Source of the DNA: an uncultured Spirochaetia bacterium
GTDB taxonomy: Bacteria; Oederibacteriota; PGYV01; Palsa-1178
DNA length: 64,000 nt
Reading direction: 5' to 3'
Assembly: GCA_964565765.1 (NCBI GenBank)
Contig: CAZMGF010000008.1
Coordinates: 4,910-68,909 of the forward strand
In this document: piece after piece, positions 32,701-62,417 of the stretch
How the letters are laid out: every line of letters begins with the position of its first letter
Position numbering within the stretch: position 1 is the stretch's first letter
The notes under the pieces: generated by a model
The model's database searches: none
What the model was told of the DNA's origin: nothing
The model's input: only the letters and a program-made list of their open reading frames with translations
Made by a program: the position numbers and the translations under genes

Positions 32701-32912
32701 CCATGATATTCGGGATGCTCCCCATAGCGATGTCGCTGGGCGAAGGGGCCAAAGGCAATGAGTCGCTCGCCGTGGTTGTAATCGGCGGATTAATAACATC
32801 AACATTCCTTACGCTTGTGGTCGTGCCGGTGGTATATGAATGGGCGGAATCACACAGCCTGCCCAAACCAAAAGATTTTTTAAAGTCAAAAACGAGGAAA
32901 AAAACAAAATAA
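29772..32912 (+). CDS. RND efflux transporter permease (AcrB/CzcA superfamily), 1046 aa
   Basis: 12-TM, two-large-loop architecture. Conserved TM4 region SLAVGLLIDDSIVVRENIFRH and the C-terminal half MTAVPLALIGAFIGLLITG. Confidence 0.9.
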   Translation: MNIAGLAIKRPVLIVMMVVTIITLGIIGLMNLPVDQFPDISFPTVNVTVSYPGASAEEMETLVSKPFEDAFATLEGIDTVSSTSMEGASFVSAQFKLGFDVKYAEANVRDKVTAVKPLLPKDVNEPVISRFAFTDIPILFYSVEGNSDQTSISEFIEDKLQPQIEQVEGVASVSIMGGRKRIVKITVDKALLQAKDLNINSIIGAVNSRNLNYPVGVVDGPIKDMTFRVVGEFKDLKQIEDMPVTSSGGKIVRLGDIAKVDWTIERETEILHVNKRPAVLFAIFKQSGTNTISVADKVESRLKQLEKDGVIPKDLKIKSVIDMTGGIRRSTEGVEENMLLGALLAVLIVYLFLGNFRSAIITAVALPNSILGAFFLIYISGFSINVITLLSLSLAVGLLIDDSIVVRENIFRHIEMGMDPKEAAEKGTNEVALAVISTTLSIMAVFLPISFLTGVIGQFFKQFGFTVAFALGISLLDAFTTAPMLSAYWYKKEGNKPKQGFSKLMHGLSLKWNDFYEELKKIYIDILKWALARKKMVIITAVGLLVFSLCLVPFIGMGFMNQNTPVMTISFETYPGAHVTNTAFYMGKVEDFISKLPEVDTYYVDAGGSSGLFGSSGSNGNIGTIMLSLVPVSKRNLSLDQISQKIRDYVRKQRIDSFVNVTTGSGGGGGNEDFSTPLLVKIYGYDLSALGKLGAQVKRIMQETPGTADADMSLKPGKPEMVLRVDPVKSATLGVSTNDVGELLRTLIAGEAISKYRRGEKEYDITMELNDRNKRVPDDIKTILITNQAGKKIPLSAVCSFTYSSGPVHVDREDKMRIVKISASLAPGYSVIEVKNKIEARLKKELVMPAGYKYTFGGQSKEFMDMGLQMAGAMLLAVLFMYMILASLYNSFTQPLILMTAVPLALIGAFIGLLITGYQLDLFGFIGLLMVLGLVAKNGILLLDFTNKMRDEGMSIREALMHAAPIRLRPILMTTFAMIFGMLPIAMSLGEGAKGNESLAVVVIGGLITSTFLTLVVVPVVYEWAESHSLPKPKDFLKSKTRKKTK

Positions 32913-34423: not shown

Positions 34424-37400
34424 ATGAATATCGCGGAGATGGCAATAAAGCGCCCCATATTTGTCATAATGATAGTGGCGTCTATAATAACACTCGGGTT
34501 GATCGGTTATACCTCCATGGGCGTTGATATGCTGCCCGACATTGAATACCCGACAATATCAGTGACCACTGTTTATGCCGGAGCTTCCGCGGAAGAGATA
34601 GAAAATCTTGTTACAAAACCACTTGAGGACGCGCTTGCCGTTGTTGAGGGGCTCGACACACTTTCTTCCACATCTGATGAATCGGTTTCTGTAATAACCG
34701 CGAAATTTAACCTTGGCGCGGATGTTAAATACGCCGAGACAAGGGTGCGCGACGCCGTAAATAAGGCGAAATGGAAGCTGCCTGACGACGCCAAGGAGCC
34801 CTCTGTCGAGCGTTTTTCAGCCGCCGAATGGATACCGGTCATTGCCATGACAGTAAAGGGGAACCGGGATCTTGCGGGCCTAAAAGAAATAGTTGACGAC
34901 AGCATAAAACCTGAAATTGAAAAAATAAAAGGTGTCGGCAGGGTTGACCTGTGGGGCGGCCGCGACAGGGCGGTAAAAATAACAATAAACAAATCGGCTC
35001 TTTTCGCCAGGATGATATCATTTAATCAGGTAATAGAGGCAATCGACAGGGAAAACCTGAACATACCCGCGGGTTCCATTGAAAACACAAAAAGAAGCAT
35101 TGACGTCCGGGTAAAGGGAAGGTTTGACTCCATTCCTGAGATAGAGAATGTTTCAATGAAGGCCGCAAACGGCGCAATTGTCAGGATAAAGGATATAGCA
35201 AACGTAACTTTTGGTTTAAAGGATGAAGAACGGCGCACCAGGGTGGATGGTGAGAACGGCCTTATTTTCGGGGTATACAAACAGTCCGGTGAAAACAGCG
35301 TTGAAATAGCAAGGATAGTAAAAAGTAAAATGAAGGATATAAACGCGAAGCTGCCCCCGGGAATAAGGTTTGATGTATTCAGGGATCCGACACATTACGT
35401 CGAACAGTCCATAGAGGGGCTGCAGGGCGACATCCTGATAGGCGCGCTATGCGCCATAATCATAGTATGGCTCTTTCTCGGCTCATTCCGCTCAACTATT
35501 ATAACGGCAATTGCCCTTCCAAATTCTCTTCTTGGCGCCTTCTTTTTCATCAATGCCGCCGGATTTACAATTAATATGATGGTGCTTCTCGCCCTCTCGC
35601 TTTCAATAGGGTTATTAATAGATGATTCCATAGTTGTCCGTGAAAATATTTTCAGGTACATCGAAGGCGGTATGGACCCGAAAAAGGCGGCTGTAAAAGG
35701 GACAAACGAAGTCGCCCTTGCCGTCATCGCCACGACTGCCTCTATTATGGCCGTCTTCATACCGATATCATTCCTGCACGGCGTTGTGGGGCAATTTTTC
35801 AAGCAGTTCGGTTTTACAATAGCCTTTGCCCTTACAATTTCACTCATTGACGCCTTCACAACAGCTCCAATGCTTTCGGCCTACTGGTGGAAAAAAGAAG
35901 ACTCCGGGAAAAACACAAAAGGCGCATCATCGGTTTTTCATGCCATACATGAAAAATGGGAAGAAATTTATGAAGGCATAAAGGAAGTTTATACACAGCT
36001 ATTAAACTGGGCCCTTGACCATAAAAAAAGCGTGATATTCGGGACGCTCGGGCTTCTGGCCGTATCCGGGCTAGCTGTCATGTTCATAGGTGTGGCATTT
36101 ATGCCCGATTCCGATTACAGCGAGATAGAGTATACAATTGAATGCAGGCCGGACGCCACCATCGACGTTGTGGACGCAAAATTAAAAATGGTCGAGGCAT
36201 ATTTAAAGACCGTACCCGACATAGAGGAGTATTATGTTGTGGCAGGCGGTGAGGGAAGCAGGGGAACGGCAAGTAAAAACGTGGGCTCTATTTTCGCCAG
36301 GATAAAAAAAGGGGGCAGGAAATCCACGCCCGCAGGACTTGAGGAGTACAAAAAGATAAGCGCTATAATAGGAAAAGACGCCCTTTTAATCCTGCAGGAC
36401 AGCGGTTCCGGCCAGGTGCTGTCGGGCGGCGGCGATACATTCGCGATAACAATAAATATAACGGGTGATGATATAAAAGTTATTGATTCCATTGCGGACT
36501 CCATCAAGAAAGAGGCGGAAAAGACACCGGGTGTGGCCGACCTGGACACATCTTTCAGGCCGGGTAAGCCCGAGATATCTGTAAAGGTTGACAGGCTCAA
36601 GGCGTCAAAACTCGGCCTTTCCACATACGAAATAGGAGAGATTCTTAATATGCTCATTAATGGGAAGGAAATCGCCCAGTACAGGAAAGGCGAAAAGGAA
36701 TATCCGATAATAATGCAGCTTCCTGAAAATGAAAGGCAGGAGATAAATTCACTGAACGACATAATGCTCACAAACAGCGCGGGGTTGAAAATACCCCTTT
36801 CAGCCGTCGCCAGATTTGAGTTCGGCTCAGGGCCCGTTGAGATAAAAAGGGAAAATAAAAAGAGGATAGTCAAGGTTACCGGAAATGTCAGGGAAAAATA
36901 CTCACTTGGCGATGTTGTGAACGCCCTTAAAAAAAATATAAAGCAGAATGTAAAAATACCTTATGGATATGATTACAGCTTCGGCGGCCAGGCCTCACAG
37001 CTTAACGACACCATAACCGAGATGGGCACCGCCATGCTTCTGGCCCTGCTTTTTATGTATATGATACTTGCCTCGCTTTATAATTCCCTGGTGCAGCCGC
37101 TTATACTTATGATATCCGTGCCTCTGGCAATTATCGGGGCGTTCCTAGCCCTGCTTGTAACCGGGCAGCAGCTGGACCTGATGGCCATGATAGGTATTTT
37201 AATGGTGCTCGGCCTTGTGGCGAAGAACGGCATACTTTTGATAGATTTCACAAACCAGAAAATAGCGCAGGGGATGAGCGCAAGGGAAGCGCTGACACAC
37301 GCCGGCCCGATACGCTTAAGGCCGATTCTTATGACAACTTTTGCCATGATTTTCGGTATGCTGCCTCTCGCCTTTGGTTTTGGAGAATCGGTAATAATGG

Positions 37401-37537
37401 CAAAGACAATGCCGATTGCAGTAATAGGAGGGCTTCTTACATCCACATTCCTTACCCTGATTGTGATACCGGTTGTTTATGAGTGGGTTGAAAGAAGAAA
37501 AGTTAAAAAAGGCAAGGCTCTGAAATACAAAAAATAG
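34424..37537 (+). CDS. RND efflux transporter permease (second pump), 1037 aa
   Basis: Paralogous to 29772..32912 (SLSIGLLIDDSIVVRENIFRY, ISVPLAIIGAFLALLVTG). Confidence 0.9.
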   Translation: MNIAEMAIKRPIFVIMIVASIITLGLIGYTSMGVDMLPDIEYPTISVTTVYAGASAEEIENLVTKPLEDALAVVEGLDTLSSTSDESVSVITAKFNLGADVKYAETRVRDAVNKAKWKLPDDAKEPSVERFSAAEWIPVIAMTVKGNRDLAGLKEIVDDSIKPEIEKIKGVGRVDLWGGRDRAVKITINKSALFARMISFNQVIEAIDRENLNIPAGSIENTKRSIDVRVKGRFDSIPEIENVSMKAANGAIVRIKDIANVTFGLKDEERRTRVDGENGLIFGVYKQSGENSVEIARIVKSKMKDINAKLPPGIRFDVFRDPTHYVEQSIEGLQGDILIGALCAIIIVWLFLGSFRSTIITAIALPNSLLGAFFFINAAGFTINMMVLLALSLSIGLLIDDSIVVRENIFRYIEGGMDPKKAAVKGTNEVALAVIATTASIMAVFIPISFLHGVVGQFFKQFGFTIAFALTISLIDAFTTAPMLSAYWWKKEDSGKNTKGASSVFHAIHEKWEEIYEGIKEVYTQLLNWALDHKKSVIFGTLGLLAVSGLAVMFIGVAFMPDSDYSEIEYTIECRPDATIDVVDAKLKMVEAYLKTVPDIEEYYVVAGGEGSRGTASKNVGSIFARIKKGGRKSTPAGLEEYKKISAIIGKDALLILQDSGSGQVLSGGGDTFAITINITGDDIKVIDSIADSIKKEAEKTPGVADLDTSFRPGKPEISVKVDRLKASKLGLSTYEIGEILNMLINGKEIAQYRKGEKEYPIIMQLPENERQEINSLNDIMLTNSAGLKIPLSAVARFEFGSGPVEIKRENKKRIVKVTGNVREKYSLGDVVNALKKNIKQNVKIPYGYDYSFGGQASQLNDTITEMGTAMLLALLFMYMILASLYNSLVQPLILMISVPLAIIGAFLALLVTGQQLDLMAMIGILMVLGLVAKNGILLIDFTNQKIAQGMSAREALTHAGPIRLRPILMTTFAMIFGMLPLAFGFGESVIMAKTMPIAVIGGLLTSTFLTLIVIPVVYEWVERRKVKKGKALKYKK

Positions 37538-45085: not shown

Positions 45086-45233
45086 AAGACAAAAACTCAC
45101 AGAAACTTGATAGTAGAGAGGAGATTTCCTAGAAATAGGTGGATTTTTCATGTTTTTTGCATTAAAATTAAGGCATATGGCGCATTCAAACATTCATAAG
45201 GGAAATCTGAGAGCGTTTTACGCAGGGACAGCC

Positions 45234-47549
45234 ATGCTGATTATGTCTGTCCTTATATTTTTTTGCGCCCCGGCTTCCATATTTGCCGATGATACCGTAA
45301 AAAACGATATTTTAAGGTCTCCCGGCGCAAGGGCCGCGGGTATGGGCGGCGCTTTTACCGCAGTAGCCGACGATTACTCCGCATTTTTCTGGAATCCTGC
45401 CGGACTTGTTCTTGACAATCACATATCAGCCACCCTGCTCTATGATTCCATATTTACGAACAAAGAAAACAACGGCGGTTTTAATTACACCCTTCCGGTT
45501 TATGACAATTACACCGCGGCTTTTTCATATATAAAATCCACATATGATTCATCCGGCTATGAGGATGACACCCTATATTTTACCGGCGCGGCATGGCTTG
45601 ACGATGAAAAAAAATACGCCCTGGGCGGCAGCTTCAAGTTTATGAACACCAGCATTTCAAATTATAATGTCTACGGCAGGACCGGAAGCTTTGACCTGGG
45701 AGTAATGGTGTTTCCGGACATGCTGGAGAAAAAAATACGCTTTGGTTTTCTTGCGCAGGACCTGAACGCGGTTATGATGTGGAACAACGGCATCAATCAG
45801 AATATACCCTACCTTTTTAAAATGGGCTCAAGCTACACATTCGACCAGACGGCGGTTGTGGATATGGACATAAACCTGCTCCAGAGCGAAGCCAGCAGGT
45901 ATTACAGCAGAATGGGGCTCAATATAGGCGGAGAAAAATGGTTTATGAACAGGATTGTCGGCAACTTCGGTCTCAGGGCCGGATTTGCCTGGAGCGAGGC
46001 CTTTAATCCCGACTATAATTTTACCTTCGGCATGTCATACAGCAGGGAGGATTTTGAATTTGATTACACTTACGCCCCAGGAGTTGAAAGCCTGGGGGAA
46101 ACGCACAAGCTGAGTTTTACATACTATTTTGGTTCCAGGGAATCGCTTAAACAGGCGGAGCAGGTTACTTCAACGGCTCTGGAGACGGCGCAAAAATCCG
46201 TTACAATATCGGCTGCCGCTGATATGGCCCTTGTTGTGGAAAAATTCAAAAACATGGATATGTCAATTACTTCAAAATATTTTTCTCCGAATAATGACGG
46301 CGTTATGGACAGTGTTGATTATATTTTAAGAAACAACCCTCCTGACTCTAAAGGCATAGACTGGTCATTTACGGTTGCCAACTCCAAAGGAGAATCAATC
46401 AGGAATTTAAAGGGGACAGGCGCGCTGCCTGCTTTCTTTACCTGGCACGGCGACAACAACGACGGAATAACCCAGGCTGACGGGGATTATACCGCCACCC
46501 TTTCAGTGAATTACTCCGGCGCTGAAATATGGAAAAAATCAAGGGTGGTGACGCTCGATAACACCGCGCCGGCGTTTGATATGACGGTCTCGCCCAAGGT
46601 TTTTGCACCTTCAAAGAACAGCTCGGTCAAGGAGCTTTCAATCGACCTTAAGACAAAAGCCGAGGATATAAAATCCTGGCAGCTGGTAATTGTGGACGAC
46701 CAGAAACATTCAATCAGGAAAATGTCGGGCGACGGTTTTACCGCCAAGCTTTCATGGGGAGGCAAAGACGCGCTGGACAACCCAGTAAAGGACGGCAAGT
46801 ACTCCGCGGATATGACCATGTATGATTACGCGGGCAACAATTATTTTGTATCAGAGCCTTTCACCGTTGACACCAGGGTAGCTGAGATAAAGATAAAGGC
46901 GGATCCGAAAGCATTCGTTCCGGCAAAGGGAAAAACGTCATTTACGGTTGATTTCTCGGAGCCCCAGCTTGTAAAGTCATTTGATTTTGAGATACTGGGA
47001 GCGGATAAGAAACCGTTAAAAGTCTTTGCCGGCAGGACCGCGGCTTCAAAAAAGATTGTATGGGACACAGGCGGCGAAAAACCATCGCCGGTAAGGCAGG
47101 GGGCCGCGTTCACATACAGGGTAACAGTTCAGCAGAAGAACGGTATGAAAAACACGGAAGAAGGAATAATACAGACCGCGCTGCCTGAATTCAAGGACGC
47201 GGGTATTGAACTTACTCTGGCGGCCATTGATTTTGCCGCGGGAGATTCAACCGTGCCCGCTGACGAGAACAGCAGCTTAAACCAGGCCACTGAAGCGGTG
47301 AAAAAATACGCCAAAGAATATTATCTTTATGTAAAGGGATATTCCACCGATGCCGGAGGTCCGGATGCTGATATTAAATTATCAATCGCGCGCGCTGAAG
47401 CGGTCCGCGATTATCTGGTGGAGGCCGGCGTGCCGGAATCCAACATTTACGTGGCAGGTTACGGCGACTGCACCTATGGCGGAAACCTTTCAAAAGCAGA
47501 GCTTGCAAAGGCCGGAAAAAGGGTCGAAGTGGAACTGCTGACGAAGTAG
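45234..47549 (+). CDS. OmpA-family outer-membrane protein: FadL/PorV-like beta-barrel, FlgD-Ig-like domains, C-terminal OmpA domain (paralog of 7291..9255)
   Basis: Signal peptide MLIMSVLIFFCAPASIFA begins at ATG 45234 (SD aggga); the tracked start 45150 is upstream. AAGMGGAFTAVADDYSAFFWNPAGL barrel motif. FSPNNDGVMDSVDY (FlgD-Ig). C-terminal ...LYVKGYSTDAGG...LSIARAEAVRDYLVEAGV...RVEVEL (OmpA_C). Confidence 0.7.
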   Translation: MLIMSVLIFFCAPASIFADDTVKNDILRSPGARAAGMGGAFTAVADDYSAFFWNPAGLVLDNHISATLLYDSIFTNKENNGGFNYTLPVYDNYTAAFSYIKSTYDSSGYEDDTLYFTGAAWLDDEKKYALGGSFKFMNTSISNYNVYGRTGSFDLGVMVFPDMLEKKIRFGFLAQDLNAVMMWNNGINQNIPYLFKMGSSYTFDQTAVVDMDINLLQSEASRYYSRMGLNIGGEKWFMNRIVGNFGLRAGFAWSEAFNPDYNFTFGMSYSREDFEFDYTYAPGVESLGETHKLSFTYYFGSRESLKQAEQVTSTALETAQKSVTISAAADMALVVEKFKNMDMSITSKYFSPNNDGVMDSVDYILRNNPPDSKGIDWSFTVANSKGESIRNLKGTGALPAFFTWHGDNNDGITQADGDYTATLSVNYSGAEIWKKSRVVTLDNTAPAFDMTVSPKVFAPSKNSSVKELSIDLKTKAEDIKSWQLVIVDDQKHSIRKMSGDGFTAKLSWGGKDALDNPVKDGKYSADMTMYDYAGNNYFVSEPFTVDTRVAEIKIKADPKAFVPAKGKTSFTVDFSEPQLVKSFDFEILGADKKPLKVFAGRTAASKKIVWDTGGEKPSPVRQGAAFTYRVTVQQKNGMKNTEEGIIQTALPEFKDAGIELTLAAIDFAAGDSTVPADENSSLNQATEAVKKYAKEYYLYVKGYSTDAGGPDADIKLSIARAEAVRDYLVEAGVPESNIYVAGYGDCTYGGNLSKAELAKAGKRVEVELLTK

Positions 47550-53439: not shown

Positions 53440-54834
53440 ATGATAATTAAAACCATCAGGTCAAAAGTAGTGCTCTATTTTCTTGGAGCGTCCGCGCTTG
53501 TAATAGGGCTGTATGGCTTCATGACCTATGAGCTGCTCCGGGGGAACCTTGAATCCGAAATGGAAAACAGGCTCACCACCGCCGGAAAAATAATAGCGCA
53601 GGCAATTGACCCTGCGGATGTGAAATATATCGGGCTTAAGGGGAAAATATACCTTTCATACAGGGAGAAATTAAGGAAATTGAGGGAGATAACGGAAGTA
53701 CGGGATATTTTTATCCTTGGAGGGGACAGAAAAGTGCTGTTATCTTCCCTTGATGAAAATGAGAAGTTTTATATTAATCTGGACAGCTTCGAAATTGAAA
53801 AGGCTTTCAGGGGAGAGACTTCATCTTCACCGCTTTATCAGGGGGCGGGAAAGCTTTATTATAAGACCGGGTATGTTCCTGTCGGCAGCGCCGGAACGAT
53901 CGCGTGCGTTGTGGGAGTTGAGGCAAGCGTCAAATATACCAGATATTTAAGCCAGTACGGCTCTACGCTGGGGACAATGGGAATTATCAGCCTGGCCCTT
54001 GCCCTTGTGATGTCGATGCTGATTACCGGAGGAATTGCCTCAAGGATAAATCTGCTCAGGAAAAAGGCTGAAGAAATCGCCAGAAGGAATTTCTCGGAAA
54101 ATATAACCGTTGAGGGTGAGGAGGAAATATCGCTGCTTGCGGCAACGCTCGATTCCATGAAAAAAGAGCTGAAGGAGTATATAGAAGACCGGGAAAAAAT
54201 GGCGTCAGTCGGGGAATTCTCCGCGGGGGTGGCCCATGAAATAAGAAATTCCCTGGGCGCCATATCAGGATACGCCGAACTTATAAGGGAAAGGGAAAAA
54301 GACGAAAAAACAAAAAAATTCGCCGGGGATATTGTCTATAACTGCATGAAGATGAGCGAGTTTCTCAATAATTTTCTGACATACACAAAGGAATTTACTC
54401 CGGAATTTTCTCTTGTTAAAACGGCGGAATTGATAAGCGAAACAATTTCCGAGCTGCCTGAAGCGGCCGGAAAAGTTATAATTGACAGGTTTTCCGGTTC
54501 GGAGGCTTCGGCAAAATGCGACCCTTACCTTATAAAAAAGGCGCTTTATAATATAATAATAAACGGATATCAGGCGCTGGATAAACCGGATGGAAAGGTT
54601 GAGATATTTTTGACAGCCGAGGGAGACAGAAGCGTAATTGTAATAAAGGACAACGGGGCCGGCATGGGGCCGGAAGAGCTCTCCAGGATATTTCAGCCGT
54701 TTGTTACCGGAAAAAAAGAAGGCACCGGGCTGGGTCTGGCCATAGTTTATCGTATAATAAAAGAAATACATAAAGGCGAGATATACGCCGCAAGCGAGGC
54801 CGGCAAAGGGTCGGAATTCGCGGTAAAAATATGA
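53440..54834 (+). CDS. sensor histidine kinase (two TM helices, periplasmic sensor domain, HisKA, HATPase_c)
   Basis: TM1 at aa 10-30, a ~150-aa periplasmic domain, then TM2. H-box SVGEFSAGVAHEIRNSLGAI. N/G boxes ...NGYQAL...DNGAGM...GTGLGLAIV. Confidence 0.85.
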   Translation: MIIKTIRSKVVLYFLGASALVIGLYGFMTYELLRGNLESEMENRLTTAGKIIAQAIDPADVKYIGLKGKIYLSYREKLRKLREITEVRDIFILGGDRKVLLSSLDENEKFYINLDSFEIEKAFRGETSSSPLYQGAGKLYYKTGYVPVGSAGTIACVVGVEASVKYTRYLSQYGSTLGTMGIISLALALVMSMLITGGIASRINLLRKKAEEIARRNFSENITVEGEEEISLLAATLDSMKKELKEYIEDREKMASVGEFSAGVAHEIRNSLGAISGYAELIREREKDEKTKKFAGDIVYNCMKMSEFLNNFLTYTKEFTPEFSLVKTAELISETISELPEAAGKVIIDRFSGSEASAKCDPYLIKKALYNIIINGYQALDKPDGKVEIFLTAEGDRSVIVIKDNGAGMGPEELSRIFQPFVTGKKEGTGLGLAIVYRIIKEIHKGEIYAASEAGKGSEFAVKI

Positions 54835-54849
54835 GACGGGGATGGTAAA

Positions 54850-56175
54850 ATGAGGGATATATTAATTGTCGAGGATAATGACGGCTTGAGGGAGGTTCTT
54901 AAAGAGGCCCTTTCAACCCCGGAAAACACCGCAGAGACGTCTGAAACAGCCGAAGAAGCACTTGAAAAGATAAAGCAACAGACATTTGATATGGTGATAA
55001 CCGACCTGAAACTTCCCGAAGCGGACGGAATGTCAGTGCTTGAAGCCGTAAAAAAGATTTCGCCTGAAACGGAAGTGATAGTAATCACAGCGCACGGGAC
55101 CGTTGACAGGGCCGTTGAGGCCATGAAAAAAGGGGCGGCGGATTTTATCACAAAACCCTTTTCAATAGAGCAGATAAGGATGCAGGTGGCAAGGATACTC
55201 GGCGCCAGAAATCTGAAGGAAGAGAACATTTATTTAAAATCAGTAATGGAGCGCAGGATAATAGGTTCCGGCGGCAGATTAAAAAGCGTTATGGAAACCG
55301 CTTCAAGGGCCGCCGACAAGGACGCCACCGTGCTTATCACCGGGGAATCAGGAACCGGAAAAGAACTTATAGCGGAAGAGATACACAGGCGGTCAAAGAG
55401 AAATAATTTTCAGATGGTAAAAGTTAACTGCGCGGCGCTATCCCCCGGGCTGCTTGAATCGGAACTTTTCGGCCATGAAAAAGGTGCGTTTACGGATGCT
55501 TATACACAAAAAAAGGGGCGCTTTGAACTTGCCGACAGGGGGACAATATTCCTTGATGAAATAGCGGAATTGCCGCAGCCGCTGCAGGTAAAAATACTCC
55601 GCGTTATACAGGAACGTGAGTTTGAGCGCGTTGGCGGCGAAAAGACCATAAAAACGGACGTACGTATAATAGCCGCCACCAACAGGGACCTGAAAGCCAT
55701 GGTAAAGGAAGGGGCTTTCAGGCAGGAGCTTTACTACAGGCTGAATGTGGTGGAAATAAATATGCCCCCGCTGCGCGAGAGGAAGGAAGATATACCGGAG
55801 CTTGTGGAATATTTCATAAAAAAATACGCGGAATACGACAATTACAGGGTGAAAGGCATAACCAAAGAGGCGCAGGACGCGCTTTTGTTCTACGATTATC
55901 CAGGCAACATAAGGGAACTTGAAAACATAATACAGCGTGTGCTTGTATTGTGCGGCGGCGATATGATAAACGACGGGGACATTCCTTATGAGCTTAAAGC
56001 CGGAAAACCCGCTGAATCCGGAAAAGACGGGCTGGAGGCGAAAGTCGCTTCATTTGAAAAAAATATGATCCAGAAAGCCCTGGATGAAACGAAAGGCAAC
56101 AAGGCAAAGGCCGCCGAACTGCTCAGTGTGAACAGGGTCACCCTGCTGGCAAAAATAAAAAAATACGGGCTTTAA
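54850..56175 (+). CDS. sigma-54-dependent response regulator (NtrC family bEBP: receiver, AAA+ domain, Fis-type HTH)
   Basis: Receiver ...FDMVITDLKLPEADG. Walker A VLITGESGTGKE. GAFTDA loop (variant of GAFTGA). C-terminal HTH KAKAAELLSVNRVTLLAKIKKYGL. Confidence 0.9.
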   Translation: MRDILIVEDNDGLREVLKEALSTPENTAETSETAEEALEKIKQQTFDMVITDLKLPEADGMSVLEAVKKISPETEVIVITAHGTVDRAVEAMKKGAADFITKPFSIEQIRMQVARILGARNLKEENIYLKSVMERRIIGSGGRLKSVMETASRAADKDATVLITGESGTGKELIAEEIHRRSKRNNFQMVKVNCAALSPGLLESELFGHEKGAFTDAYTQKKGRFELADRGTIFLDEIAELPQPLQVKILRVIQEREFERVGGEKTIKTDVRIIAATNRDLKAMVKEGAFRQELYYRLNVVEINMPPLRERKEDIPELVEYFIKKYAEYDNYRVKGITKEAQDALLFYDYPGNIRELENIIQRVLVLCGGDMINDGDIPYELKAGKPAESGKDGLEAKVASFEKNMIQKALDETKGNKAKAAELLSVNRVTLLAKIKKYGL

Positions 56176-56192
56176 CAATAAAGGAGAAAATA

Positions 56193-56918
56193 ATGAAAAA
56201 AATGGCACTGGTTTTATCCGCATCGCTTATCACTCTTTTTCCCGCGCTTTATGCCGGGGAAAATCCCGGATTTGAGGCAAAAGCCAGGGAGTATTCCGCA
56301 CAGCTGGAAAAAAAGCAGTCGGAGTATCTGAGGGTAAAATCCCGTTATGAGCAGATGTTGAGGCGTTTAAATGAACTCAAGGAGCGAACCAAGAAAAATC
56401 CTGTGGCCTCTTTTATTAATTCCATGAAGATGGACTATTACCTTAAAGCGGGTAACAGCGCGGGGTATAAAATTTACGTGCTCAACAGGCAGATCAAGGA
56501 ACTTTCGGGTGAGTGCTTTACTTATGATTCCCTTGTTGCCGGTGACCTTACGAAAAAATTCCAGGATTGTATTGAAAATAAATGCGGGGAGGCGCAGCGG
56601 ATATATGACGAAAGGGAAAAGTGGACCGCCATGGCGCTCGGGACCGGAGAGGCCCTTGTATTTGATATTGATGTAAAGGGCATGCTTGAAGGGATGAGTC
56701 CGGAGGCAAAAGAGGACCTAAGGCAATACCTGAAAAAGAAAATGGTGCAGATAGAAGAAAGAATATATATGCTCAGGGAAGAAAAAGAGATAAATACCGC
56801 CGCCGGGAAAAACGGCATAAAAACAGCATCCGAAACGGTTAAAAAATCAGGGGAAGAAATGGCAAAGTTTTTGAGGATGGAAAAAGAGGCGAAAAACATA
56901 CTGGCTTCTATTAAATAA
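56193..56918 (+). CDS. secreted hypothetical protein (signal peptide, coiled-coil-rich), co-transcribed with the HK/RR pair
   Basis: MKKMALVLSASLITLFPALYAG signal peptide. Starts 17 nt after the RR stop. Confidence 0.55.
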   Translation: MKKMALVLSASLITLFPALYAGENPGFEAKAREYSAQLEKKQSEYLRVKSRYEQMLRRLNELKERTKKNPVASFINSMKMDYYLKAGNSAGYKIYVLNRQIKELSGECFTYDSLVAGDLTKKFQDCIENKCGEAQRIYDEREKWTAMALGTGEALVFDIDVKGMLEGMSPEAKEDLRQYLKKKMVQIEERIYMLREEKEINTAAGKNGIKTASETVKKSGEEMAKFLRMEKEAKNILASIK

Positions 56919-56920
56919 GG

Positions 56921-56955
56921 ACAGCCCTGCCAGCATCGCAGGGCTGTCGTAATTC
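56921..56955 (+). terminator. stem-loop ACAGCCCTGC-N7-GCAGGGCTGT: operon terminator and/or bEBP upstream activating sequence
   Basis: Perfect 10-bp inverted repeat 2 nt after the stop of 56193..56918. The 3' flank is only weakly U-rich. It lies ~105 bp upstream of the sigma-54 -24 element. Confidence 0.5.
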
Positions 56956-57038
56956 ATTCACCGCTGTACGTTTTTATACTATAAAATCCCGGATTGTAAA
57001 ACCACCCCGTTATTAGCCATATTTATATGGGCATATGC

Positions 57039-57054
57039 TGGCACGGCTATTGCT
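57039..57054 (+). promoter_or_regulatory. sigma-54 (RpoN) -24/-12 promoter
   Basis: TGGCACGGCTATTGCT matches YTGGCACGrNNNTTGCW exactly, including GG-N10-GC spacing. It sits 38 nt upstream of the ATG at 57092 (SD aaaggagaa). Confidence 0.8.
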
Positions 57055-57091
57055 TACTATAATGATGTAGAAAGCAAAAAGGAGAATTTAT

Positions 57092-57463
57092 ATGAGGCTG
57101 AAATTGATATCAATAGATGAAAAACAGCTGAAAGATTACTTGGTGCTTGTCCAGAAAATAAAGAGCATTCCGCCCGATAAAACCTCTGATATGGCCGGAA
57201 AAATATCAAGAATAAGGGGAAGGGCCGGAAAGAACGCCATTTACCGCAGTCTTATAGAATCCAATTTAAAGAATGTGGTTCATGTGGCCTCGAAATACAG
57301 GGGGGCCGGAGTGACATTTGCCGCTCTTATTGCCGCCGGCAACAGGGCATTGATAGCGGGCATAAAGGGATTTGAACCTGAAAAAGGCGAAAATTTTAGC
57401 GAAGCCATAAACTGGCAGATCGAAGGCGCGGTAATGGACTGTGTTGTTGAGGCTAAAAAATAG
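57092..57463 (+). CDS. 123-aa protein homologous to sigma-70 regions 1.2-2.2 only (truncated sigma / putative sigma mimic)
   Basis: LIESNLKNVVHVASKYRGAGVTFAALIAAGNRALIAGIKGFEPEKGENFSEAINWQIEGAV aligns with sigma-70 [61 protein letters not shown]. The upstream IPPDKTSDMAGKI resembles region 1.2 (LTREGEIDIAKRI). The protein stops after region 2.2, with no regions 2.3/2.4/3/4. Confidence 0.6.
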   Translation: MRLKLISIDEKQLKDYLVLVQKIKSIPPDKTSDMAGKISRIRGRAGKNAIYRSLIESNLKNVVHVASKYRGAGVTFAALIAAGNRALIAGIKGFEPEKGENFSEAINWQIEGAVMDCVVEAKK

Positions 57464-57506
57464 GCCGGCCGCATGGCCGGCATTTGAAAAACAGGAGATG
57501 GTAAAA

Positions 57507-59252
57507 ATGAAAAAAAGAATTATTTCGGCGCTCATACTGATGCTGGCAGTGGCGGCTTTTAGTTATTCTGCAACAGGAACAGCGGTTATAAGCCCTGCTT
57601 ATCTCGCGCCGTCAGCATACCGTCCTACTATCACCATAACTTATAAAACCGCCGGCGTTACAATGGTTGCGGGCGCGGTGGAGTTGCAGATAAATTCAGC
57701 CTTTCCGCTTCCAACCACAGTAACCACAAGCGCCGGCGCTATAACAGCGGTCATAATGATTAACGGAACCACCCCCACTGACGTGCCGCAGTCTGATATA
57801 ACCATTAACGGATATACCGTTACGATAAATTCATTAAACATACAGCCGGTTGATTCACTGATTATAACCTACACCGGGGCAGGAACAGGCGAATTTGTCG
57901 GGCCGGCGGCAACCGGCGCGTATCCTTTTAATGTATCCGAGGAAATTTCATCAACCGACCTTAATTTTACAGGCCTTGGTTCCCAGCCGGTTATTTATGT
58001 CACAAATATGGTAATTACCAAAACAACAGAAAGCAGCCTTATAGAGGCGGGCAATACAGTTACATATGTAATTTCGTATCAAAGCAATGAAGCGAATATG
58101 AATTCTGTTTCAATAACGGACTCAATGCCTCAGGGGCTTTTGATACAAAGCGCGCAGCCGTCTTCGAGCAGTTATAGCGGCAATATATATACATGGAACA
58201 TTGGAAGCGTTGCTACAGCAGGCAGTTTGTCAAGCATCACAATAACGGCTGTGGCGCAAGCCGGGATTGCGGCATACGGCTTTACCTCGACCAATTACGC
58301 CACTATTTCAGCCAACAGCAGCATAACAGGATCAAATGGAATGGCTGTTTCAAGCACAGTAAACGTCAGCGGAGCGGTTCTTACATCTTCAATTACAGCT
58401 TCACCCGATTCTGTTGTATCAGGCGGGCAGATTACTGTTGTCATGAATGTAAGCAATTCCGGAAACTATGGGGCGTCAAGCGTCGCTCCATCGACACTTT
58501 CATTATCCGGCACCACAGTGGCGACATTGCTAAGCGGACCCGTACCTTCATCTGTTTCAGGTATTGAACCCAACGCATCGGCTTCTTTTACGTGGATATA
58601 TACGGCAAATAATCCTGGAATGACAAATTTTACGGGTTACTCCAGGGGATATGACAACGGGCAAGTATTGTCTTCAGGAACCGCTGTTAGCGGCAATATT
58701 TCGGTATTAAACCCGACCCCGACATTTACATTCACCTTAACAAGCACACCCACTCCGCAGAATACAAATACTTCAACCGGAACATTTACACCTGTGCCGC
58801 CGACGGACACGCCGACCCCTCAATATACAAACACTCCCGCTGTCACAAATACACCGGCAGTTACCGATACACCGGCGGGGACCGCGACCACGGTTCCGGG
58901 CCAGACAAGTTCTCCGACAGCGGTTTCAACGGCCCCGCTTACAACGCCGACGCAGGTTCCAACAATTACTGTAAAAGCCGTAACCGACAGAAATTATATT
59001 AATCTCAGCAACGGCGACAGGGCCGCTATTATTTACAAAGTTGAAAGCGACGGCGACAGCTGGATAGATATATATAATCTCAGCGGCGAGCTTGTAAAGC
59101 ATTATGTAAGAGAGCCGCTTGCCGCCGGACAGCATACAGTTTACTGGGACGGATCAAACGATGACGGCAAAAAAGTCGGGCAGGGAATGTATTTTATAGT
59201 AATACACCAGCCGGGCGGGGTAACAACAAAGAAACTTATTGTAATAAAATAG
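57507..59252 (+). CDS. secreted DUF11-repeat surface protein with long TP linker and T9SS-type C-terminal sorting domain
   Basis: SD aggag 9 nt before ATG 57507 (signal peptide MKKRIISALILMLAVAAFS; tracked start 57441 is upstream). DUF11-like ITKTTESSLIEAGNTVTYVISYQSN. Linker TPTPQNTNTSTGTFTPVPPTDTPTPQYTNTPAVTNTPAVTDTP. CTD ...IYNLSGELVKHYVRE...VYWDGSNDDGKKVGQGMYFIVIHQ...KKLIVIK. Confidence 0.7.
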   Translation: MKKRIISALILMLAVAAFSYSATGTAVISPAYLAPSAYRPTITITYKTAGVTMVAGAVELQINSAFPLPTTVTTSAGAITAVIMINGTTPTDVPQSDITINGYTVTINSLNIQPVDSLIITYTGAGTGEFVGPAATGAYPFNVSEEISSTDLNFTGLGSQPVIYVTNMVITKTTESSLIEAGNTVTYVISYQSNEANMNSVSITDSMPQGLLIQSAQPSSSSYSGNIYTWNIGSVATAGSLSSITITAVAQAGIAAYGFTSTNYATISANSSITGSNGMAVSSTVNVSGAVLTSSITASPDSVVSGGQITVVMNVSNSGNYGASSVAPSTLSLSGTTVATLLSGPVPSSVSGIEPNASASFTWIYTANNPGMTNFTGYSRGYDNGQVLSSGTAVSGNISVLNPTPTFTFTLTSTPTPQNTNTSTGTFTPVPPTDTPTPQYTNTPAVTNTPAVTDTPAGTATTVPGQTSSPTAVSTAPLTTPTQVPTITVKAVTDRNYINLSNGDRAAIIYKVESDGDSWIDIYNLSGELVKHYVREPLAAGQHTVYWDGSNDDGKKVGQGMYFIVIHQPGGVTTKKLIVIK

Positions 59253-59606
59253 GCTGCATATTTTGGATCAGTATAAACCGGGGTTTTGCATCATGATATT
59301 AATGAATGTTTGATAATTAAATCTATTCAACATGGTCCTGGATTAACTGTTTAACTAAAATCAACATAATTCACTATTTTCCACTTTTACTTTCACGTTA
59401 AACCAATTTATTTTATGGTTAAACTATCCTGTGTAGTTATTTTGTTACCCACCCAAAAATTGCTTTATCATGTATCCATGCTATAGTCTAAATAAGGGAA
59501 AATTTTAAGCGTTTAAACAGGAGCCTATATTAATTTAAAACGTTTTCAATAAAAACGCTTTCGGGGAATTAATATTAATGTTCGAAATTTAGGCGGGAGT
59601 TTTATC

Positions 59607-62417
59607 ATGGGGAAAATATTATCGAACTTAAGTCGGGCAGCTGCCATTTTTATCTTCCTGTTTGTCGCTACGGCTGCCATAACAGCATTTACAAACCCCG
59701 GATTTGAAACCGGGACACTGGCTGGCTGGACAACAAATATATCCTACGGCGCAAATGTTGTATACGACCCGAATGTAACAATCCAGACTCACGGCGCGGC
59801 ATGGCACACACAGGGCACTATTTGCGCCGCTCCTTTAATCTGCCTTGATATGGTTCATACCGGAACCTACGCCGCAATGCTGGATTCCGGAAGGGGTGAT
59901 AATCCGGTCAGGGATTACGCACAGATACAGCAGGCAGATATAGTACCGTCGAACGGGAATTCATGCCTCTCTTTCTGGTTCGCCGCGGTTTTATCCGGCT
60001 ATCATTATCTTGACTGGCTAAATAACAACAACGGCTCGCCGAATGACGACGCTTATGTTGTGGTTGATGTGCTTATAAACGGTGCGGTAGTCGCGAGCCA
60101 GCGTTTCAATTATTTTACAATGCTTAATCAGCTTGTTGACGATGGGGCTGATCCTGCTGGAGGCCCGGAACCGGTGGTGAGCGGAGCGGGAAATTTGAAT
60201 GTATGGAAACACCTGCCATGGACGCAGTTTTATATCAATCTTGCCGCGTACGCCGGCCAGCAGGCCACTGTAAGGTTTACCGCCTATTCATGCGACCAGA
60301 GCGGCCACAGCTGCATAGGCTATCTTGATGATGTAAGCTGGTCCGCATGCCCGGTTGTAAATATGAACCTGGCAAAAACAAACAGCCCTACCGGAACGGT
60401 CCACAATGGCGGGACAATAACATACACCCTGGCCTATTCATTGACCGGGACGGCGGGTGTACTGGGTGTAAACATTTATGATACATTTCCGTCAGGCACA
60501 ACATACGTAAACAATTCGGCTGGAAGCACGCCTTTTTATCCGGTTGTAAACGTTACCGCAGCGGGCATTAACTGGAACCTTGGATACCTGGCCCCCGATT
60601 CTTCAGGGACGCTGACTTTTAAAGTAAAGGTCAACACTTCGTGCACCGGGGTAAGCAATACCGCCTCTGAAACGGATCTGGAGACGGACGGGATAATATC
60701 AAATACTGTTTATAACTGGATAGACGGCTGCACGCCGACATTTACGGTTACAAGGACATATACCCCCACCTCCACTCCTACCGCAACAAAAACAGTTACA
60801 AAAACAATAACAGCAACCTTTACACAGACATATACACCAACCGCGACGCCGACTTTTACATTTACCGACACTTACACACCGACATATACGCAGACATACA
60901 CACCAACGGCCACACCAACTTTTACATGCACCAGGACATTTACGCCTACTTTTACACAAACATTCACACCGACCGCGACCCCCACTTTTACCTATACAAA
61001 TTCCGATACTCCTACAAGGACCGTTACAGCAACAAATACGCTGACAATTTCCAAAACAATAACTCCAACCCTTACAGCAACGCCGACAGACACGCCGACT
61101 TTTACTGCAACACCCACTTACACATATACATTGACATTTACTCCGACATTTACAGGAACATTCACTTCAACATTCACATCAACTTACACGGCAACGCCGA
61201 CTTTTACCCAGACCTATACAGCGACGTATACGCTTACCGCAACCCCGACTTTTACATCCACAAAGACTTCAACTATGACCTTCACAAGAACGTCCACGCC
61301 GTCTTTTTCGCCGACCGCCACCGCAACCCCCACAAGCACAAATACCGATACGTCGACGTTTACTTTCACCAGGACATACACTTTCACATTTACTACGACT
61401 TTTACGCCTACAATAACAGACACATTTACAGCGACACCTGTAAAGACAACCACAACCGGATACCTTGTAACGGTAAAAATTTACAATGAAGCCGGAGAGG
61501 TTGTAAGGACAATAATCCAGTCGCAGACAACTTATCTGCTTACAGGAATTATTACAAGTGTAAATGGAAACACCGGAGCCAATATCTTTTCAACCGGGGA
61601 AGTTTTTACAGTGACTTTACCGGGAGCGGGGCCGGGCGGCGCGGACATGACAACGTCATGGGACGGTAAAACAGACGCCGGCCAGCCTGCGGCATCCGGC
61701 ACCTACTACCTTGCGGTGGATGAAACAGACACATACGGTCATGTGACTGATATAACAAAAACCATTACCCTGATCCAGGATTCCACCTACATTCAGCTCA
61801 ATATATTTAACAGCGCCGGCGAACTGGTGAGGAAAATTACAGATTATAATTTTATCTTCCCGCCTGATTTTTTATCCGGCACTGCCGCGCTGGGGGTAAT
61901 TATGAATGTTCCGGCCGTTATAACAACCAAGGAGGCCAATTTATCGCCGGTTCAGGTAATGTTCGGATCACAAACCGGGGACTTCATGCTGTGGGACGGC
62001 AAGAACAATAGCGGTATTTCAGTGAGCAGCGGAGTATATGAAATGCAGATTGTGGTAAAAACAGAGTCCCTGCTCGCCGTAGTGGCTTCCAAGAGCGTCA
62101 CCGTACTTGAAAACAATGATGTTTTTATAGGTGAAATAAAGGCACTGCCAAATCCATATATGGGTTCCGGCAACGGTATAGAATTCAGATGGACGTCCAA
62201 TGAAACCGGCAATATGAGCATAACCATTTTTAACATGTCAGGCGAGCTTATACGGATCCTTAACACAAAACTTGAGAACGGCTCGATGAAATGGGACACG
62301 GCAACAGCATCAGGCAATCTGGTTTCAAACGGGCTCTATATAGCGGTACTTCAGGGAATATCCGGCGGTGGAAACATAGCAAGATTAAAGGTAAAAGTCG
62401 CGATAAACAGAAGATAG
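59607..62417 (+). CDS. large secreted adhesin-like protein: N-terminal beta-sandwich/DUF11 region, ~245-aa Thr/Pro/Phe/Tyr tandem-repeat linker, three FlgD-Ig-like domains, the last a T9SS-type CTD
   Basis: Signal peptide. [28 protein letters not shown] (DUF11-like). The repeat region spans [20 protein letters not shown]...[13 protein letters not shown]. Ig domains [13 protein letters not shown]...[18 protein letters not shown]; [13 protein letters not shown]...[18 protein letters not shown]; [14 protein letters not shown]...[10 protein letters not shown]...RLKVKVAI. Confidence 0.7.
60730..61465 (+). repeat. intragenic low-complexity tandem repeat encoding (T-x-T-P/F/Y-T)n linker; the unit [12 protein letters not shown] recurs about 3 times nearly identically
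   Basis: The DNA-level near-repeat acatatacaccaaccgcgacgccgacttttaca recurs at about 60826, 60889 and 60952. Spurious ORFs appear on both strands across this region. Confidence 0.8.

Follow-up and report, generated by a model that had tools for sequence, protein, structure and literature searches.

Sigma factors that lack the half reading the -35 element are represented, as far as we found, by gp55 of phage T4 and by one split, extracytoplasmic function (ECF)-like pair in Bacillus. The T4 late sigma factor gp55, which operates with gp33 and gp45, is a sigma-R2-like protein without sigma4 that docks on the clamp helices of RNA polymerase and recognizes a -10-like element (PMC7892883); its sigma-R2-type domain is active without sigma4, and accessory proteins are needed for full activity (PMC7892883, PMC2988020). 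In Bacillus subtilis, SigO and RsoA split sigma functions over polypeptides that are encoded side by side (PMC7826278); both pieces are ECF-like, with RsoA carrying a region-2.3-like segment of ~9 kDa (PMC7826278, PMC10141391). A different use of sigma-derived structure is seen in PhyR of the alphaproteobacterial general stress response, i.e., a degenerate regulatory domain that is not a sigma factor (PMC4551977, PMC4814048), and in Borrelia the Rrp2-RpoN-RpoS cascade has an NtrC-type activator and sigma-54 induce a sigma-70-family gene tied to surface proteins (PMC3037356). Here, we analyze a stretch of 64,000 nucleotides (the window) from an uncultured Spirochaetia bacterium (assembly GCA_964565765.1, contig CAZMGF010000008.1), in which a 123-residue open reading frame (ORF) encodes an isolated sigma1.2-sigma2 domain. 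The gene stands behind a predicted sigma-54 promoter and is followed by a gene for a secreted surface protein.

Each of these systems has at least one defining feature that is missing from the sigma2-only family to which this protein belongs. With the group 1/2 sigma-70 factors (SigA/RpoD and RpoS) the family shares homology that is colinear from region 1.2 through the whole 2.4 helix, the same five-helix fold, and the residues Y394, L404, I405, G408, N409, L412, F427 and W433. In contrast to these factors, the window protein is basic, has only 123 residues, and lacks sigma3, the 3.2 linker and sigma4; D403, Q406 and E407 are unconserved, and R436 is an invariant glutamate. Of the domains that define the sigma-70 family, sigma2 is present and sigma4, with its region 4.2 helix-turn-helix (HTH), is missing. 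The sigma-R2-like four-helix core of gp55 is matched by the structural model described below, whereas gp55 has a long H4-H5 helix-loop-helix, a C-terminal sliding-clamp-binding tail and an acidic docking triad, none of which is present in the window protein. No sequence family link to gp55 was seen among the Pfam or PHROGs matches, and the generic sigma family phrog_351 was the only phage family matched in PHROGs.

Compared with the SigO-RsoA pair, the family piece is a whole group-1/2-like sigma2, and the HTH partner found in some lineages is not recognizable as sigma4 and is missing in the window lineage, where the sigma2-only gene is the only gene between the promoter and the surface-protein gene. 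SigO and RsoA were not among the 25 best NCBIfam matches, and no direct sequence comparison with either was run. PhyR mimics ECF sigma2 plus sigma4 and is fused to a phosphorylation-controlled receiver; the family protein is sigma2 only, unfused, and apparently controlled through sigma-54-dependent synthesis. The window protein is a single domain without a Response_reg match or a NepR-like neighbor. The target of the Borrelia cascade is full-length RpoS, unlike the sigma2-only protein. An initial annotation of this DNA, which held that no sigma-54-controlled device of this kind was established, overlooked that cascade; the new element is the truncated architecture.

An isolated and conserved sigma1.2-sigma2 domain

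The reading frame at 57092-57463 opens with the first ATG that follows a stop codon and has its own Shine-Dalgarno sequence, as the initial annotation proposed (Table 1). The Pfam model Sigma70_r2 matches the product with an E-value of 1.6e-4 and 21.8 bits, slightly below the 24-bit cut-off, and the NCBIfam models for RpoS (6e-14), RpoH (1e-12) and Firmicute-type RpoD (1e-11) match with alignments confined to the N-terminal (region 1.2-2.x) part of each model. The RpoH and RpoD alignments start at residue 12-13 of the protein, corresponding to region 1.2; the assignment of this region is supported by these colinear alignments, the dedicated Pfam model Sigma70_r1_2 giving no match. A profile of the family compared with PDB chains retrieved SigA, RpoD and RpoS with E-values from 2e-16 (SigA) to 1e-12, and its alignment to SigA/RpoD reaches the residues ADQA at the end of the 2.3/2.4 helix. 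In agreement with this, the AlphaFold2 (AF2) model (predicted local distance difference test, pLDDT, 84.7; predicted template-modeling score, pTM, 0.80) shows five helices, of which helix 5 (residues 102-122) is the 2.3/2.4 helix and ends the protein. The best Foldseek matches of the model are all sigma2 domains (TMq 0.65-0.76), with an alignment to RpoS of 111 columns.

The likeness to regions 1.2-2.x of the sigma-70 family that had been noted from the letters alone is thereby confirmed by Pfam and NCBIfam. That the protein ends right after region 2.2 is incorrect, as is evident from the extent of the profile alignment, from helix 5 of the model and from the length of the Foldseek alignment. 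The further claim, that the determinants for -10 recognition are absent, has to be divided: the 2.3/2.4 helix is present, yet it has diverged to the point where W433 is the only determinant kept. Correctly noted was the lack of sigma3 and sigma4. The Pfam models for regions 3 and 4 do not match the protein, and a tblastn search of all frames of the window, for which RpoD, FliA and a 289-residue relative supplied their C-terminal halves as queries, gave no sigma3 or sigma4 coding potential. The gene thus encodes a complete isolated sigma1.2-sigma2 domain (regions 1.2 to 2.4) without sigma3, the 3.2 linker or sigma4, and the protein is a descendant of a group-1/2-like factor of the sigma-70 family. 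The basic character of the window protein is shared by the family (median isoelectric point 9.2). A link to anti-phage defense was considered and rejected, the PADLOC and NCBIfam MzaA matches being generic sigma homology across the same residues.

The short form is conserved. A first homologue search gave 19 clusters (at 90% identity) of 123-129 residues and 45-93% identity, and an exhaustive profile search added about 20 further representatives (at 50% identity) of 120-134 residues, all ranked above ordinary sigma factors; a profile word search gave 40 clusters. In all, about 50 clusters share a length of 120-134 residues and the same ends. The named host genomes belong to candidate division FCPU426 and Candidatus Goldbacteria, which have been treated as one phylum (PMC7031533), and the short form of 120-134 residues is retained throughout this candidate phylum. 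Between the window and the related locus L001 (loci are numbered in this way below), the ratio of non-synonymous to synonymous substitution rates (dN/dS) is 0.12 with dS saturated. L011 differs from the window by a dN of 0.10, with a dS beyond correction.

The view of a long-diverged, independent short protein, which the initial annotation preferred to that of a pseudogene, is borne out by the uniform length, the low dN/dS and the saturated dS, and the search for relatives of equal length that it suggested as a check found the short form conserved. That the ORF arose by chance, or is what is left of an ordinary sigma factor as a fragment or pseudogene, might be suspected from the Sigma70_r2 score just under the gathering threshold and from the substitution of several consensus sigma residues. 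This reading is refuted by the length uniformity and shared ends of the clusters, by the dN/dS of about 0.12 and by the absence of a sigma3/4 remnant in every frame of the window; promoter and neighbors are conserved as well, and the probability left to it is negligible. The same absence of sigma3/4 coding potential, uniform length of the relatives and purifying selection exclude a frameshifted or truncated full-length sigma gene. A phage origin was also rejected: no relatives are present in IMG/VR, the fold matches in BFVD are ordinary full-length phage sigma factors, and PHROGs offers the generic family alone. The sigma2-only protein is cellular, not viral.

Two proteins recovered in the exhaustive profile search have other architectures. 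P0022 (386 residues) carries three tandem sigma2-only-like domains in a single polypeptide, and P0045 (984 residues) is a full-length sigma factor with an additional C-terminal sigma2-only-like domain that ends in FRIEGFMEDFL. These suggest that free or repeated sigma2 modules occur outside the sigma2-only family.

A conserved cassette behind a predicted sigma-54 promoter

The sequence TGGCAC-N5-TTGCT at 57039-57054 is the sole exact match to TGGCAC-N5-TTGCW in the 64 kb, where 0.07 are expected. A relaxed core, GGCAY-N6-TGCT, is found exactly once per locus in 19 of the 19 loci that carry the family, directly upstream of the cassette and about 40-60 nt from its first ATG; loci with proteins of only about 33% identity are no exception. 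The consensus sigma-54 promoter assigned to the gene in the initial annotation is therefore upheld, being unique in the window and present in all related loci. The promoter has the -24 GG and -12 GC elements with correct spacing, and a gene for an enhancer-binding protein lies 0.9 kb upstream, as in sigma-54-dependent genes; the predicted sigma-54 dependence of the cassette is well supported by the comparison of loci.

Directly upstream are the genes for a sensor histidine kinase, an NtrC-type activator and a secreted protein of 241 residues, in an order that the FCPU426 loci and L015 share. Of the related loci for which upstream sequence is at hand, most have such a kinase and NtrC-type pair ahead of the cassette. 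The activator matches Sigma54_activat (8e-72), Response_reg (2e-28) and HTH_8 (1e-13) in Pfam and is, from its adjacency, presumed to be the activator of the 57039 promoter. Orthologues of the 241-residue protein (194-242 residues) occupy the same position in related loci, and the hairpin that follows its gene probably terminates the upstream transcription unit. A conserved block with an imperfect inverted repeat, located 35-90 nt 5' of the -24 element, is a candidate enhancer (upstream activating sequence, UAS) for the adjacent activator. An Rfam scan of positions 56000-60000 gave no credible structured RNA, the sole match being snoR113 (E-value 0.69, 20 versus 47 bits), and a scan of the L001 spacer for a suspected riboswitch found nothing.

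Table 1 Features of the sigma2-only cassette and its upstream region in the window
Feature	Position	Strand	Basis
Sensor histidine kinase (HAMP/HisKA/HATPase_c)	53440..54834	+	ORF; orthologues with HisKA/HATPase_c; syntenic in FCPU426 loci and L015
NtrC-type response regulator/sigma-54 enhancer-binding protein (REC + Sigma54_activat + HTH_8)	54850..56175	+	Pfam and conserved synteny
241-residue protein with signal peptide and predicted coiled coil; last gene of the kinase-regulator unit	56193..56918	+	No Pfam match
11-bp GC-rich hairpin (11 pairs, 8 G-C) directly 3' of the 241-residue gene; probable terminator	56920..56948	.	Sequence
Conserved block TGTmCGTTTTTatAC ... GTAAAACCAC, imperfect inverted repeat; candidate UAS	56965..57005	+	Alignment of the upstream regions of the window, L011, L019 and L001
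Predicted sigma-54 (-24/-12) promoter TGGCACGGCTATTGCT; expected transcription start ~57065	57039..57054	+	Exact motif and conservation
Shine-Dalgarno sequence AGGAG, 7 nt 5' of the ATG	57080..57084	+	Sequence
Stand-alone sigma1.2-sigma2 domain protein, 123 residues, isoelectric point 9.7, five helices	57092..57463	+	ORF, profile and structure evidence
7-bp all-GC perfect hairpin GCCGGCC GCAT GGCCGGC immediately 3' of the sigma2 stop codon; no T-run on the + strand	57464..57481	.	Sequence
581-residue secreted protein: signal peptide, DUF11/CLIPPER isopeptide-type domain, CARDB-like region, Thr/Pro linker, C-terminal FlgD_ig/Por-tail-like domain	57507..59252	+	Pfam

Some related loci vary in this upstream region. 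The activator gene is broken into two ORFs in L003 (5569-6912; 221 and 187 residues) and in L008 (5469-6795; 209 and 253 residues), which could be inactivation in some populations or sequencing error. In L001, L004 and L014, a palindromic insertion of about 200 nt that resembles a miniature inverted-repeat transposable element, with arms GGTACTGGCGGAAAACCCC ... GGGGTTTTCCGCCAGTACC, separates the 242-residue gene from the sigma-54 promoter and occupies the stretch about 90-330 nt upstream of the sigma2 gene (~7670-7910 in L001). At this element, the sigma2-CLIPPER block of L004 joins another upstream context (DsbD/thioredoxin and a ribosomal-protein/rpoA cluster), and the junction is either a rearrangement or a chimeric assembly.

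The gene that follows had been called unrelated to sigma, and it indeed encodes a secreted DUF11/CLIPPER and FlgD_ig protein, which differs from the window's other DUF11 proteins and is probably co-transcribed with the sigma2-only gene. In every locus the sigma2-only gene is followed, immediately or with one further gene (mid) in between, by the gene for a full-length CLIPPER orthologue (~530-590 residues, 32-57% identity). The invariant core of the cassette consists of the sigma-54 promoter, the sigma2-only gene and this one orthologous CLIPPER/DUF11 secreted protein. The GC hairpin directly after the sigma2 stop codon is absent in L011 and L001; it might be an attenuator or RNA stabilizer that sets the ratio of regulator to surface-protein mRNA in the window lineage only.

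A fuller cassette is found in L008, L013, L015, L016 and L017, where a gene for a small HTH protein of 60-77 residues lies upstream and the mid gene, encoding a novel helical protein of 215-266 residues, lies downstream, overlapping or abutting the sigma2 gene. At its N terminus, the mid protein carries an acidic helix that is conserved (S.DD..EIFG). In these lineages the downstream genes are very large (1140 to more than 3000 residues) and spaced by only 70-105 nt. The window clade (the window, L001, L011 and L019) has neither the HTH gene nor the mid gene in its cassette. The fuller cassette, present in all examined lineages outside the window clade, is presumed to be ancestral. In L005 (7895-7996), and likewise in L006, L007 and L012, the small HTH gene persists as a 3' remnant located between the sigma-54 promoter and the sigma2 gene (50% identity across 34 codons in L005), which documents a stepwise loss of the HTH partner gene.

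Sigma2 surfaces and possible modes of action

We mapped 52 family members to the numbering of E. coli sigma-70. Some positions are kept with hardly an exception (Y394 and L404 in 52/52, I405 in 51/52, N409 in 52/52), and in region 2.1 the residues E381, N383, L384 and K385 are largely retained, with E381 in 50 of the 52 sequences and Lys or Arg at 385 in 51. F427 and W433 are each present in 49/52, with an aromatic residue at position 419 in 44 and at position 430 in 43; a non-aromatic residue at 430 is, among the aligned sequences inspected, confined to the clade without HTH and mid genes. The replacement of R436 by glutamate in 52/52 is a signature of the family, accompanied by Gly for Q437 and Asp or Asn for R441 in 45/52 each, the same two residues (G437 and D441) that are found in E. 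coli FliA. The N-terminal motif MxLKL..I(D/E)EK.LKDY is also conserved. The window protein keeps L404, I405, G408 and N409 of the D-L-I-Q-E-G-N motif. In its 2.3/2.4 helix W433 is kept (W108), while Y430 is Ala, W434 Gln, Q437 Gly, T440 Met and R441 Asp; hence, W433 alone is left of the set that determines binding of the -10 non-template strand (Y430, W433, W434, Q437 and T440).

Our tentative preference, possible rather than probable, is for a sigma2-type action on transcription, in which the fuller cassette would encode a multi-piece sigma-like specificity or loading factor and what the window lineage would have kept is a protein that occupies or modulates the polymerase's sigma2 site without initiating. 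A signal at the histidine kinase would activate the enhancer-binding protein, sigma-54 polymerase would fire the 57039 promoter, and the sigma2-only protein would be made along with the surface protein, to act through its sigma2 surfaces, i.e., those that normally serve for the clamp helices of beta-prime and, on the DNA, for the non-template strand. Where the sigma2 protein is translationally coupled to the small HTH and mid proteins, the overlap of these genes points away from a simple competitor and towards a specificity factor of several parts. The window protein is regarded as non-initiating because both partners and the A(-11)-stacking aromatic residue (Y430) are absent, and it may shift the sharing of RNA polymerase while the sigma-54 operon is on. 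Support comes from the sigma2 identity and conservation of the protein, from the conserved promoter and the adjoining Sigma54_activat regulator, from the overlapping HTH and mid genes of the fuller cassette and their absence in the clade with non-aromatic residues at 430, from the sigma2-type surfaces that are partly retained in the 52 members, and from the precedent of gp55.

A considerable body of observations weighs against this preference. Sigma-70 docks on the clamp helices through D403, Q406 and E407, and ordinary sigma2 domains are acidic, unlike the basic family protein. T4 gp55 likewise uses acidic helix residues (E70, D74 and E77), which lie in a groove of the clamp helices that carries positive charge (PMC7892883). 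In the family, position 403 is acidic in 14/52, Ala in 18 and Lys or Arg in 9, position 406 is Lys or Arg in 25/52, and position 407 is Ala in 25 and Glu in 19; in the window protein all three are Ala. Because the acidic docking residues of gp55 and sigma-70 are not conserved, canonical clamp-helix docking of the window protein seems not assured, and the argument for core binding appears weaker than the initial annotation put it; the sigma competitor envisaged there is possible but unproven. Moreover, the invariant Glu at 436 and the Asp or Asn at 441 lie on the face that normally meets the -12/-13 DNA. The small HTH protein gives only sub-threshold matches to generic HTH models (HTH_17, ANT and NUMOD1) and no Sigma70_r4 match, for which reason it was rejected as a sigma4, and no relation of the mid protein to either sigma3/4 or a solved fold was seen. 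Finally, nothing in this or any other reading explains the obligatory pairing of sigma2 and CLIPPER genes. On the other hand, the invariant N409 and near-invariant W433 would be hard to explain without contacts to polymerase or DNA.

The retained surfaces could also belong to a sigma factor, minimal or split, that has kept its capacity for initiation. Like gp55, it would bind core polymerase and melt a -10-like element; upstream recognition would either be unneeded or be provided by the small HTH and/or mid protein, which the window lineage would then encode elsewhere. The resulting cascade, from two-component system to sigma-54 to mini-sigma to surface-protein genes, would be analogous to Rrp2-RpoN-RpoS of Borrelia, in which a sigma-54-to-sigma cascade governs surface lipoproteins (PMC3037356). 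The frequencies of W433 and of aromatic residues at 430 and 419 speak for such a factor, as do the retained region 2.1 residues and the translational coupling of the HTH partner, and since G437 and D441 are also found in FliA these two changes need not signal a loss of -10 reading. Besides gp55, SigO-RsoA, with sigma2 and sigma4 on separate polypeptides, is a precedent (PMC7826278). We nevertheless consider an initiating factor unlikely: the window lineage is without the HTH and mid genes and without an aromatic residue at 430, the acidic clamp-helix residues are lost, and the protein ends with helix 5, without a helix-loop-helix or clamp-binding tail of the gp55 type. Nor was a shared target-promoter motif seen upstream of the downstream surface-protein genes or other DUF11 genes; the genes at 59607, which follows the CLIPPER gene and has an extended -10, and at 21834 have ordinary sigma-A-type promoters.

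Loss or charge reversal of the clamp-docking acidic residues, in a protein whose fold and other surface positions are strictly kept, would be consistent with a sigma-domain decoy that makes no contact with polymerase and, when synthesized from the sigma-54 promoter, titrates a protein that grips sigma2, i.e., an anti-sigma factor or a binder of the Crl/RbpA/GcrA type. The logic would be that of the PhyR sigma-like domain capturing NepR, sigma-factor mimicry being an established mechanism (PMC4551977, PMC4814048); the universal R436 to Glu exchange and the conserved N-terminal motif fit this idea, and the mid protein, with its acidic N-terminal helix, could be such a partner. However, the mid protein is unlike known anti-sigma folds and is absent from the window, the window cassette has no anti-sigma-like gene, and N409 and W433 fit polymerase or DNA contacts more easily, which leaves the decoy quite unlikely. 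There is a slender chance that the protein is an operon-specific elongation or antitermination device, which would make a sigma-R2-type contact, to the clamp helices and a non-template sequence resembling a -10 element, available in trans to complexes that sigma-54 has started. A promoter-proximal pause would then allow the small HTH protein to load, like Q or AlpA; alternatively, occupation of the NusG/RfaH site would permit read-through of very long surface-protein operons. The position of the sigma2 gene at the head of the operon, the huge and tightly spaced downstream genes of the lineages with HTH and mid genes, the HTH_17/excisionase-like nature of the small partner and the common clamp-helix site of sigma-R2 and NusG (PMC7892883) are in its favor. 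It is built wholly by analogy, however, and the window lineage has a two-gene operon without the HTH partner in which the protein is still under strong purifying selection; the leaders are generally AT-rich with no conserved -10-like pause element, and the loss of the acidic docking residues counts against this contact, too. A combined form, to which we give a low probability, would have a free-standing sigma-R2 module loaded in trans onto sigma-54-initiated polymerase, acting with the HTH partner as a split sigma or as a Q/AlpA-like device for giant surface-protein operons. If true, this would put the chemistry of a sigma-70-type domain 2 to work in transcription initiated by sigma-54.

Surrounding genes and standing of the family

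Further large secreted proteins with DUF11 and/or FlgD_ig domains (and CHU_C/OmpA) and Thr/Pro-rich repeat linkers are encoded at 21834-24554, 45150-47549 and 59607-62417, and a family of Thr/Pro-rich linker repeats (D3) is found at 58716-61393. The gene at 21834 has a TTGAAA/TATAAT promoter and no sigma-54 site. Upstream of the gene for a DUF11/FlgD_ig/CHU_C protein of 936 or 967 residues, a non-coding region of about 190 nt is conserved between the window (59380-59606) and L001 (12440-12624). It contains repeated GTTAAAC motifs and a sigma-A-type promoter (TTGCTT, 16 nt, TGCTATAGT/TATATT with extended -10), and it is kept in L001 despite the insertion of a TonB-dependent receptor gene in between. 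Elsewhere in the window, two AcrB-type efflux pump genes of the resistance-nodulation-division family (29772-32912 and 34424-37537; Pfam ACR_tran ~1e-269 each) lie in tandem. They are 70-74% identical in nucleotide sequence over the detected repeat stretches and each is preceded by similar genes, indicating duplication of an efflux operon.

In public annotation, members of the sigma2-only family are labeled hypothetical or carry an automatic sigma70/32 label. The Pfam, NCBIfam, PHROGs and PADLOC libraries hold no dedicated family model, and full-text searches of the literature gave no description of a stand-alone sigma2 protein. The architecture and regulation reported here are solid and unusual, and the mechanism is one proposed from sequence. 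A conserved cellular sigma2-only protein would be a natural experiment on what sigma domain 2 is capable of on its own. Clamp-helix competition, DNA melting, polymerase pausing and partner decoying are the candidate outcomes, and any of these would be a new regulatory device linking two unrelated sigma families. The small size of the protein should suit heterologous biochemistry although the organism is uncultured, and any of the candidate outcomes would also offer a handle on the control of surface proteins in an uncultured phylum.

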